Shown: in pieces, positions 8,463 through 9,392 of the stretch
Position numbering within the stretch: position 1 is the stretch's first letter
Layout of the letters: the number at the start of each line of letters is the position of its first letter
Sequence record: PV340576.1
DNA from: Escherichia phage PhiR68_2
DNA: 49,669 bases
Reading direction: 5' to 3' (one strand)
Translations under genes and position numbers: made by a program
Notes under the pieces: model-generated
The model's input: the letters and a program-made list of their open reading frames with translations, nothing else
What the model was told of the DNA's origin: nothing
The model's database searches: none

Positions 8463-9392
8463 ATGGCAAACACTGCTGAGATATTCAATTTTCCAGTGCC
8501 GGATGCGGCACAAAAGGAGCCGCGCGTGGCAGATCTCGATGATGGTTATACGCGCATTGCAAATGAGTTGCTGGAAGCTGTGATGCTGGCCGGATTAACA
8601 CAGCACCAGCTTCTGGTCTTTCTGGCTGTCATGCGCAAAACATATGGCTTTAATAAAAAACTGGATTGGGTTAGCAACGAGCAACTTTCCGAATTAACCG
8701 GGATATTGCCGCACAAGTGTTCTGCTGCAAAAAGTGTTCTGGTAAAGCGTGGGATTTTTATTCAGAGCGGGCGGAATACCGGCATTAATAATGTGGTCAG
8801 TGAATGGTCAACATTACCCGAATCAGGTAAGAAAAATAAAGTTTACCTGAAAGAGGTAAATTTACCTGAATCAGGTAAAAAAAGTTTACCCAAATCAGGT
8901 AAAGGCGTTTACCCGAATCAGGTAAACACAAAAGACAAACTAACAAAAGACAATATAAAACCTTTTTCGTCCGAGAATTCTGGCGAATCCTCTGACCAAC
9001 CAGAAAACGATCTTCCTGTGGTGAAACCGGATGCTGCAATTCAGAGCGGCAGCAAGTGGGGGACAGCAGAAGACCTGACCGCCGCAGAGTGGATGTTTGA
9101 CATGGTGAAGACCATCGCGCCATCAGCCAGAAAACCGAATTTTGCAGGGTGGGCTAACGATATCCGCCTGATGCGTGAACGTGACGGACGTAACCACCGC
9201 GACATGTGCGTGCTGTTCCGCTGGGCATGCCAGGACAACTTCTGGTCCGGTAACGTGCTAAGTCCGGCCAAACTCCGCGACAAGTGGACCCAACTCGAAA
9301 TCAACCGTAACAAGCAACAGGCAGGCGTGACAGCTAGCAAACCAAAACTCGACCTGACAAACACAGACTGGATTTACGGGGTGGATCTATGA
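8463..9392 (+). CDS. O: replication initiator O, 309 aa
   Basis: N-terminal RVADLDDGYTRIANELLEA matches lambda O DNA-binding domain; C-terminus ...KLDLTNTDWIYGVDL as lambda O; GGGAGG RBS before ATG 8463; iterons inside gene. Confidence 0.9.
   Translation: MANTAEIFNFPVPDAAQKEPRVADLDDGYTRIANELLEAVMLAGLTQHQLLVFLAVMRKTYGFNKKLDWVSNEQLSELTGILPHKCSAAKSVLVKRGIFIQSGRNTGINNVVSEWSTLPESGKKNKVYLKEVNLPESGKKSLPKSGKGVYPNQVNTKDKLTKDNIKPFSSENSGESSDQPENDLPVVKPDAAIQSGSKWGTAEDLTAAEWMFDMVKTIAPSARKPNFAGWANDIRLMRERDGRNHRDMCVLFRWACQDNFWSGNVLSPAKLRDKWTQLEINRNKQQAGVTASKPKLDLTNTDWIYGVDL
8814..8925. repeat. origin iterons: 5 copies of 17-bp palindromic TTACCyrAAkmrGGTAA (8814..8830, 8843..8859 degenerate, 8862..8878, 8886..8902, 8909..8925) followed by AT-rich tract 8926..8970
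   Basis: Directly visible repeats inside O coding sequence, encoding repeated LPESGKK linker; organisation as ori-lambda. Confidence 0.85.

Follow-up and report, generated by a model that had tools for sequence, protein, structure and literature searches.

The replication gene O of Escherichia phage PhiR68_2 (sequence record PV340576.1; the whole stretch analysed, 49,669 nucleotides (nt), is called the window hereafter) contains a cluster of five palindromic repeats, and the question raised by this locus is whether the cluster is a replication origin and, if so, of which type. It is very probably the replication origin of a lambda-like prophage, belonging to the ori-lambda/P22 class and having an initiator specificity of its own. 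This reading is carried by the anatomy of the array, its homology in register with lambda, constraint at the DNA level, the covariation of the repeats (iterons) with the N-terminal domain (N-domain) of the O protein, and the exchange of the C-terminal domain (C-domain) of O together with its partner gene. Within the lambda/P22 class of origins, the locus adds a specificity type that is new, or at least unannotated, in a textbook arrangement; the understanding of how such origins work is unchanged by it, and the finding is of low surprise and of practical use.

The iteron array and its constraint at the DNA level

The repeat TTACCYRAAWSAGGTAA (17-base-pair (bp) unit TTACC-N7-GGTAA) is present in five copies starting at positions 8814, 8843, 8862, 8886 and 8909 (Table 1), that is, with start-to-start distances of 29, 19, 24 and 23 bp (mean 23.75). 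Every copy is an inverted repeat of 5+7+5 bp and fits the consensus, and iterons 2-5 widen to 19-bp palindromes of the form TTTACC-N7-GGTAAA. When a degenerate form of the pattern was searched with two mismatches allowed, the five array sites were the sole matches in the 49.7-kb window, with 0.09 matches expected by chance and none of 100 shuffled sequences equalling the observed number. A preliminary description of the locus had listed five 17-bp palindromic repeats at a spacing of about 23 bp, and all five were found again on re-inspection. It had also placed them inside the O coding sequence, in agreement with the match of the surrounding open reading frame (ORF) to the Pfam family Phage_rep_O (PF04492, E = 1.1e-33), which covers residues 51-145 of the long O ORF; the ORF further matches phrog_277 ('replication initiation O-like', 1e-163). 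The array (8814-8926) lies between this N-terminal Pfam domain and a C-terminal part of O that is lambda-identical.

The AT-rich tract that had been described after the repeats does follow directly to the right of the last iteron, with a GC content of 0.262 versus 0.491 window-wide and a plus strand that is strongly A-rich. It holds two ACAAAAGACAA repeats (8928-8942 and 8943-8957), a motif also found 3′ of the iterons in P22, SEN34, phage 2851 and Klebsiella phages, and a near variant of it, ACAAAAGAAAC, follows the iterons of a Yersinia phage.

Sequence variation was scored in a sample gathered by protein similarity, that is, 80 relatives found among viral contigs via the O N-domain and without use of the iteron motif, of which 61 unique ungapped sequences were retained; the profile search behind it had been aimed at distant O types, returned only relatives that are 95-100% identical, and was used as the motif-independent sample. 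Only 6% of the iteron half-site columns varied, the lowest class measured, compared with 30% of the spacer columns and 26% of the columns in the 7-bp iteron centres. Within the N-domain, 6, 9 and 22% of first, second and third codon positions varied, respectively, and in the AT tract only 7% of the columns did so. A separate scan of viral contigs with the motif itself yielded 120 loci, 102 of which carry exactly the 29/19/24/23 array. The exceptions have nine copies (a 48-bp two-iteron unit in triplicate) or seven (a 24-bp unit in triplicate) or, after loss of 24-bp units, four (29/19/23) or three (19/23). All changes in array length are therefore made of 24- or 48-bp units, multiples of three in every case, and the O frame is always kept. 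An array variant of nine copies is present in Kluyvera sichuanensis.

Iteron 1 sits inside a 10-codon insertion relative to lambda O, it is the most degenerate copy in Klebsiella relatives (TTACCCGTAAAAGGTAC), and it is missing from the four-copy arrays of Xenorhabdus, Providencia and Pantoea. In a scan of one genome per bacterial species, distant genera had four copies at 19/24/23, Enterobacteriaceae mostly five and Kluyvera nine, so that the four-copy core is the general form and iteron 1 a lineage-specific addition. Most likely, the functional core consists of the four iterons beside the AT tract, with the fifth as an accessory, and iteron 1 is probably an auxiliary upstream site. The best available model for it is provided by the extra iterons of the Shiga-toxin phages 933W and P27, which have six lambda-type iterons and, as here, carry the additional ones upstream of a four-iteron core. 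In 933W, only the four iterons beside the AT tract are bound efficiently; binding to the extra ones is weak, but replication is not efficient without them (PMC7466680). The correspondence with 933W is not complete, in that 933W has the lambda iteron sequence and N-domain and two extra copies in a 20/19 register, while the present array has a single extra copy at 29 bp.

Relation to lambda and other origins, and initiator specificity

In the lambda record, the iterons are at 39034, 39054, 39078 and 39101 (spacing 20/24/23), and in a DNA alignment iterons 2-5 of the window (19/24/23) fall column for column on lambda iterons 1-4. The arrays of the window and of lambda and 434 occupy the same position in the O linker and are both made of 19-bp inverted repeats, ori-lambda itself comprising four 18-19-bp iterons and an AT tract inside O. 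They differ in the half-sites, which are TTTACC/GGTAAA around a 7-bp centre here and TCCCTC/GAGGGA around a 5-bp centre in lambda (TCCCTC-N5-GAGGGA), in the O N-domain, which shows only about 44-49% amino-acid identity to that of lambda, and in the one additional upstream iteron. At the DNA level, identity to lambda is 59% in the N-domain, 56% in the core iterons, 74% in the AT tract, 96.9% in the rest of O and 95.7% in P, and the last 130 amino acids of O are 99% identical to lambda O. Megablast homology with lambda-type O genes begins, depending on the record, at 8913-8926 (query positions 541-554), at most a few bases from where the last iteron ends. O thus has the make-up of the classical two-domain mosaic, in which a type-specific N-domain and its iterons are joined to a shared C-domain working with P. 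The preliminary description had recognized the ori-lambda arrangement, which is what the iterons in register with lambda, the partly homologous AT tract, the lambda-like C-terminal part and the P gene following it amount to, and the comparison of iterons with lambda that it proposed gave the same register with a different half-site sequence. Indeed, no lambda-type iteron TCCCTCAAAACGAGGGA was found in this O gene with four or fewer substitutions, whereas lambda, 434, 933W and Escherichia phage D2 all match; on that basis the origin stands outside the strict ori-lambda group (lambda/434/933W; consensus ATCCCTCAAAACGAGGGA). With the lambda class in the wider sense it shares an origin located within the initiator gene, at least four inverted repeats of about 19 bp in a register close to 20/24/23, an AT tract, a Phage_rep_O initiator, a paired C-domain and partner, and, as judged by sequence comparison, a match between iteron and N-domain types.

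That the iteron sequences would set O specificity had been suggested before, and the comparison of O genes supports this, since across 20 O genes the type of half-site changes in step with the O N-domain, in particular with O residues 82-91 (LPHKCSAAKS). In an alignment of eleven N-domains, proteins associated with TTACC-type iterons have (L/A)P(H/T)KCS(A/T)AK at these residues, and all four associated with TTAGC-type iterons have HHTH(V)C there. The TTAGC type, TTAGC-N7-GCTAA, was found in phage 2851, Klebsiella phage RCIP0114 and the Yersinia phage in a 20/24/23 register and in SEN34 in a 24/23 register, and Sf101 has TGTCAC-N7-GTGACA, again at 20/24/23. SEN34 is instructive in this respect, as its N-domain is 58-60% identical to the TTACC group versus 42-48% to the other TTAGC phages, yet it has the TTAGC-type motif and the TTAGC iterons. 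The scan of one genome per species detected the iteron pair in nine species (Pseudocitrobacter, Kluyvera, two Enterobacter, Klebsiella, Xenorhabdus, Providencia and two Pantoea), whose O N-domains are only 58-84% identical to that of the window, with L(P/S)HKCSAAKS invariant (one P-to-S change). The LPHKCSAAKS segment is therefore a predicted DNA-recognition helix. A single-sequence AlphaFold model of the N-domain, with a predicted local distance difference test score (pLDDT) of 45, has helices at 47-61, 72-79 and 82-95 followed by a strand, and this order of secondary structures hints that residues 82-91 may be the recognition helix of a winged helix-turn-helix; at this pLDDT the model was too poor for a fold search.

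The specificity determinants are not tied to the lambda-type C-domain. The Klebsiella phages GZ7 and KO-TP1 have N-domains that are 76-79% identical over the aligned segment, a five-copy array at identical gene offsets (352, 381, 400, 424 and 447) and the same AT tract, but their C-domain is unrelated to that of lambda O, and the next gene of GZ7 encodes a DnaC-type loader. From one relative to another, a change of C-domain goes along with a change of partner gene. The N-domain, iterons and AT tract thus travel as one module, combined with a lambda-type C-domain and P in some phages and with unrelated C-domains and DnaC-like loaders in others.

Two further observations concern the edges of this module. 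In the window and seven compared loci, an AT tract (8927-8957 in the window) with ACAAAAGA(C)AA repeats is common to O-type origins of any iteron or C-domain type, and module boundaries lie near it, the lambda homology beginning where indicated above and the Klebsiella homology stopping at about 8955; the tract looks like a conserved junction for recombination between N- and C-modules. In Escherichia phage D2 (OM475427.1; positions 301-1322 of the stretch examined), O is a hybrid, in which the first 112 or so residues are of the window type and are joined out of frame to lambda sequence with lambda-type iterons; it is annotated as two 'O' coding sequences. Either recombination has left this phage with a broken O gene, or the join is an error of sequencing or assembly.

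The closest characterized relative of the specificity module is gene 18 of P22. The N-domain of gp18 is 65% identical, the P22 ori DNA, annotated as an origin in the P22 record, is 78.8% identical over window positions 8860-8955 (blastn), and the two loci have in common the TTACC/GGTAA half-sites and the ACAAAAGACAA AT tract. P22, however, has four units with a centre of 5-6 bp, as read from the sequence, versus 7 bp here, an unrelated gp18 C-domain, and as partner the DnaB-type helicase of gene 12, where the window has a lambda-type C-domain and P. The origin is accordingly not identical in geometry to that of P22, the half-sites being shared and the spacing and the C-domain/partner pair not. 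A phi80-type origin was represented by gene 15 of HK225, a stand-in chosen by its annotation note, which likewise has palindromic repeats inside an O-family gene, with a distantly lambda-like C-domain (46% identity). Its units resemble TTCCCGAAAACGGGAA in a 21/21-bp register, and its N-domain is only 36% identical to that of the window. No phage 82 or phi80 ori record was found among the phage records.

Iteron origins of the plasmid Rep type (F, P1, pPS10) also have initiator sites beside an AT-rich unwinding element, but these are direct repeats to which a plasmid Rep protein binds, in most cases accompanied by DnaA boxes, in contrast to the inverted repeats inside their own Phage_rep_O initiator gene seen here. 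No DnaA box was found between 5331 and 30631, and none less than 3 kb from the array, an absence more in keeping with a lambda-type than with a plasmid-type origin. Given the palindromic units, the Phage_rep_O initiator and this absence of DnaA boxes, a plasmid Rep-type origin was rejected.

Proposed mechanism and alternative readings

In lambda, O dimers bind the iterons by their N-terminal domain and form a wrapped complex, the AT tract opens in supercoiled DNA, and the C-domain brings in P-DnaB (PMC7466680, PMC3349717). By analogy, the prophage O would, as a dimer, contact the 19-bp palindromic iterons with its N-terminal Phage_rep_O domain; the four iterons beside the AT tract (19/24/23) would build a wrapped 'O-some', with the fifth, upstream iteron as an auxiliary site. 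The O-iteron complex would then destabilize the neighbouring 42-bp AT-rich tract, and the lambda-type C-terminal domain of O would bring the P-DnaB complex to the opened DNA, host replication proteins following. The gene tolerates the array because the linker that joins the two O domains, where it is placed, is variable. The O/iteron pair decides phage replication complementation and exclusion, the compatibility of lambda-dv-type plasmids, and the place from which induced prophages start the in-situ amplification that also copies neighbouring host genes, and the origin is likely orthogonal to that of lambda for use in vectors.

Several points weigh against this reading. O binding, unwinding and origin firing would here be extrapolated from lambda, and for this iteron type the first and last of these rest on that homology. 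Part of the conservation evidence comes from loci ascertained by the motif, and the set ascertained by protein similarity consists of close relatives with little overall variation. The assignment of the recognition helix rests on the model with pLDDT 45, and neither by sequence nor by profile was a significant solved relative found in the PDB. Among the matches listed, none has an iteron or origin feature annotated at the match, unlike the records of lambda, 434, 933W and P22. Searches of the literature on lambdoid iterons, phage 82, ori82/rep82 and the iteron sequence itself found no paper on these iterons and nothing on this iteron type. Finally, the early rightward promoter from which transcription would activate the origin was not picked up between cI and cro by a simple consensus scan; the cro-like, cII-like, O and P genes share one orientation.

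The alternative that survives best, although it is improbable, is that the origin features are real but have become a relic in this prophage copy, which has ceased to fire. The window holds an integrated DLP12-like prophage, and since about 45% of complete E. coli genomes have the type, many of its copies must be defective. However, the ORFs of O and P are both intact, none of the five iterons departs from the consensus, and phage PhiR34_1, whose listed host is E. coli K-12 MG1655, has a 100% identical O gene and is 99.1% identical over 91% of the first 25 kb of the window; with the identical O gene, the origin serves a viable phage.

Less probable again is the possibility that the array mainly serves another DNA-binding protein (a repressor, Cro, a YdaT-type CII or a partition protein) or is a decoy or exclusion element. 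Plasmid-borne lambda iterons together with oop do block phages of the same replication type (PMC3349717), and some relatives have arrays expanded to seven or nine copies. On the other hand, no further copy of the motif is present in the window, not even in the operator region between cI and cro, and operator sites were rejected on this ground. Furthermore, the iteron type covaries with the O N-domain although the upstream regulator genes are annotated differently among the phage records examined, and any decoy effect would add to an origin function without replacing it.

The reading frames of the array bear on a third alternative. Iteron copies 1-5 lie in frames 0, 2, 0, 0 and 2 of O; copies 1, 3 and 4 translate to LPESGKK, LPESGKK and LPKSGK, and copies 2 and 5, in another frame, to VYLKEVN and VYPNQVN. 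The lambda iterons likewise spread across frames 1, 0, 0 and 2. The preliminary description had the iterons encode a repeated LPESGKK linker, which is right for copies 1, 3 and 4 and wrong for copies 2 and 5. Given this spread over different frames, as in lambda, the repeat is kept as DNA and the peptide repeat is a by-product. A tandem repeat at the protein level, that is, a flexible LPESGKK-type linker arisen by slippage and having no role as DNA, would account for the location of the array in the inter-domain linker of O, for the three copies that give LPESGKK or LPKSGK and for copy-number shifts by in-frame units, but it is the least probable of the three, being largely refuted by the two copies in a different frame, by the inverted-repeat form of each unit, which is meaningless for a peptide, by half-site variation that is lower than at third codon positions and in spacers in both frames, and by unrelated O types that hold the 20/24/23 register with different palindromes and peptides.

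A wider reading, which goes beyond an origin with its own specificity and which we consider unlikely in its entirety, would have three elements. The array would act as an in-frame 'dial', its three to nine copies tuning both origin strength and the length of the O linker; a resident prophage would serve as a decoy titrating incoming O of the same type; and, separately, LPHKCSAAKS/TTACC and HHTH(V)C/TTAGC would form a simple natural recognition code. If true, the decoy would help to explain the presence of this specificity type in so many complete E. coli genomes, and the code could be used to re-target O-type initiators.

Gene starts, prophage setting and distribution

The lambda O alignment begins at M31 of the long O ORF. 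The sequence GGGAGG and the ATG at 8463 are conserved, and the 90-nt extension upstream has no excess of variation at third codon positions; the start at ATG 8373 is probably an over-extension. Names in the cluster to which the O protein belongs were generic among the 40 of its 7,825 members that were read. Marking the origin and correcting the probably over-extended O start improves prophage annotation.

Table 1. Coordinates of the array, its flanking elements and associated genes (window positions)
Feature	Position	Strand	Remarks
Iteron 1	8814..8830		TTACCCGAATCAGGTAA; 29 bp before iteron 2; without the outer T/A pair of the 19-bp palindrome
Iteron 2	8842..8860		TTTACCTGAAAGAGGTAAA; aligned to lambda iteron 1
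Iteron 3	8861..8879		TTTACCTGAATCAGGTAAA; aligned to lambda iteron 2
Iteron 4	8885..8903		TTTACCCAAATCAGGTAAA; aligned to lambda iteron 3
Iteron 5	8908..8926		TTTACCCGAATCAGGTAAA; aligned to lambda iteron 4; adjoins the AT tract
AT-rich tract	8927..8968		42 bp, GC 0.262; A 23, T 8, G 2, C 9; presumed DNA-unwinding element
Imperfect inverted repeat	8969..8996		GTCCGAG...CTCTGAC; lies in DNA homologous to that just right of the lambda AT tract; read from the sequence and the lambda alignment
LPHKCSAAKS codons	8706..8735	+	O residues 82-91; segment covaries with the iteron half-site
Gene O	8463..9392	+	309 amino acids from ATG 8463; many records begin at ATG 8373 (339 amino acids)
Gene P	9389..10090	+	Lambda-type helicase loader, partner of the O C-terminal domain; Pfam Phage_lambda_P, 1e-61
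Promoter-like site	8460..8488	-	TTGAAT-17-CATAAT, upstream TG; overlaps the probable O start codon (8463)
Hairpin	~8393-8425	-	Stable, followed by a U-rich stretch; about 30-70 nt downstream of the promoter-like site; z = -1.8

In lambda, the pO (oop) promoter is located at 38684-38688 (PMC3349717) and the O start at 38686, so that the promoter overlaps the start of O; the leftward promoter-like site of the window overlaps its O start in the same way. It is a possible, though uncertain, accessory element. Many records count the 90 nt from ATG 8373 as part of O; this region may instead contain a gene for an oop-like RNA and be non-coding.

At the beginning of the window lies the 3′ portion of a tRNA gene (positions 1-49; Rfam match, cut by the window edge), followed by an integrase gene on the minus strand (68-1231), and the window runs on through lysis, head and tail genes. 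The tRNA part followed by an integrase indicates a prophage integrated at a tRNA gene, with the window starting at the left attachment site. The window is an integrated lambdoid prophage of the DLP12-like kind, its DLP12-like traits being an emrE-like SMR gene, a ybcK-type recombinase gene and a porin gene, with rusA-type nin genes in relatives. Upstream of O are a gene for an S24-type repressor, a YdaS-family cro analogue (7573-7806) and a YdaT-family cII analogue (7831-8376). Pfam names the YdaS/YdaT-family proteins 'toxin', PHROG 163 labels the second one a CII-like activator, and the arrangement matches the ydaS/ydaT pair of the Rac prophage. Downstream of P, there follow a ren-like ORF (named Ren in the PhiR34_1 record), the emrE-like SMR transporter gene (10457-10789) and the gene for the ybcK-type large serine recombinase (11044-12570; 508 amino acids); emrE-like and ybcK-type genes after ren are also found in the DLP12 region of E. 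coli K-12. DLP12 is related to phage 82, whose origin was sequenced in about 1979-81, and the origin described here could plausibly be this classical ori82. Searches for papers on PhiR phages found none.

The origin is the commonest of the O type among complete E. coli genomes. The 271-bp segment 8700-8970 was found in 2,451 of 5,426 such genomes (about 45%), in 2,414 of them with at least 80% query coverage, whereas the equivalent lambda segment was found in 1,591 of the same genomes (1,322 with at least 80% coverage). The full O allele is present in 14 phage records, and the specificity type extends to Klebsiella, Enterobacter, Kluyvera, Pantoea, Providencia and Xenorhabdus. Most matches to records labelled 'plasmid' were set aside, as the records are very large, probably represent parts of chromosomes or phage genomes in an episomal state, and are uninformative on plasmid replication. 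The Klebsiella pneumoniae element p1_130119 (NZ_CP127232.1; positions 252-4706 of the stretch examined) is a 28.9-kb circular 'plasmid' with genes for ParA, an S24 repressor, cro, cII and an O containing the five-iteron array, O being followed by a gene for a DnaC-like protein annotated as 'ATP-binding protein'. Judging by this gene content, p1_130119 is likely to be a phage-plasmid using the O/iteron module as its replicon, which suggests that the module may be able to act as a replicon in the plasmid state.

Elsewhere in the window, the ORF adjoining the repressor gene (5657-6682, minus strand; 341 amino acids) had no match in Pfam, PADLOC or PHROGs; in lambdoid phages, the position next to the repressor is often occupied by exclusion or defence genes. 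In the tail-fibre region, positions 43748-43946 of the plus strand give a full-length match to Rfam IS009, with 220.9 bits (gathering score 117).

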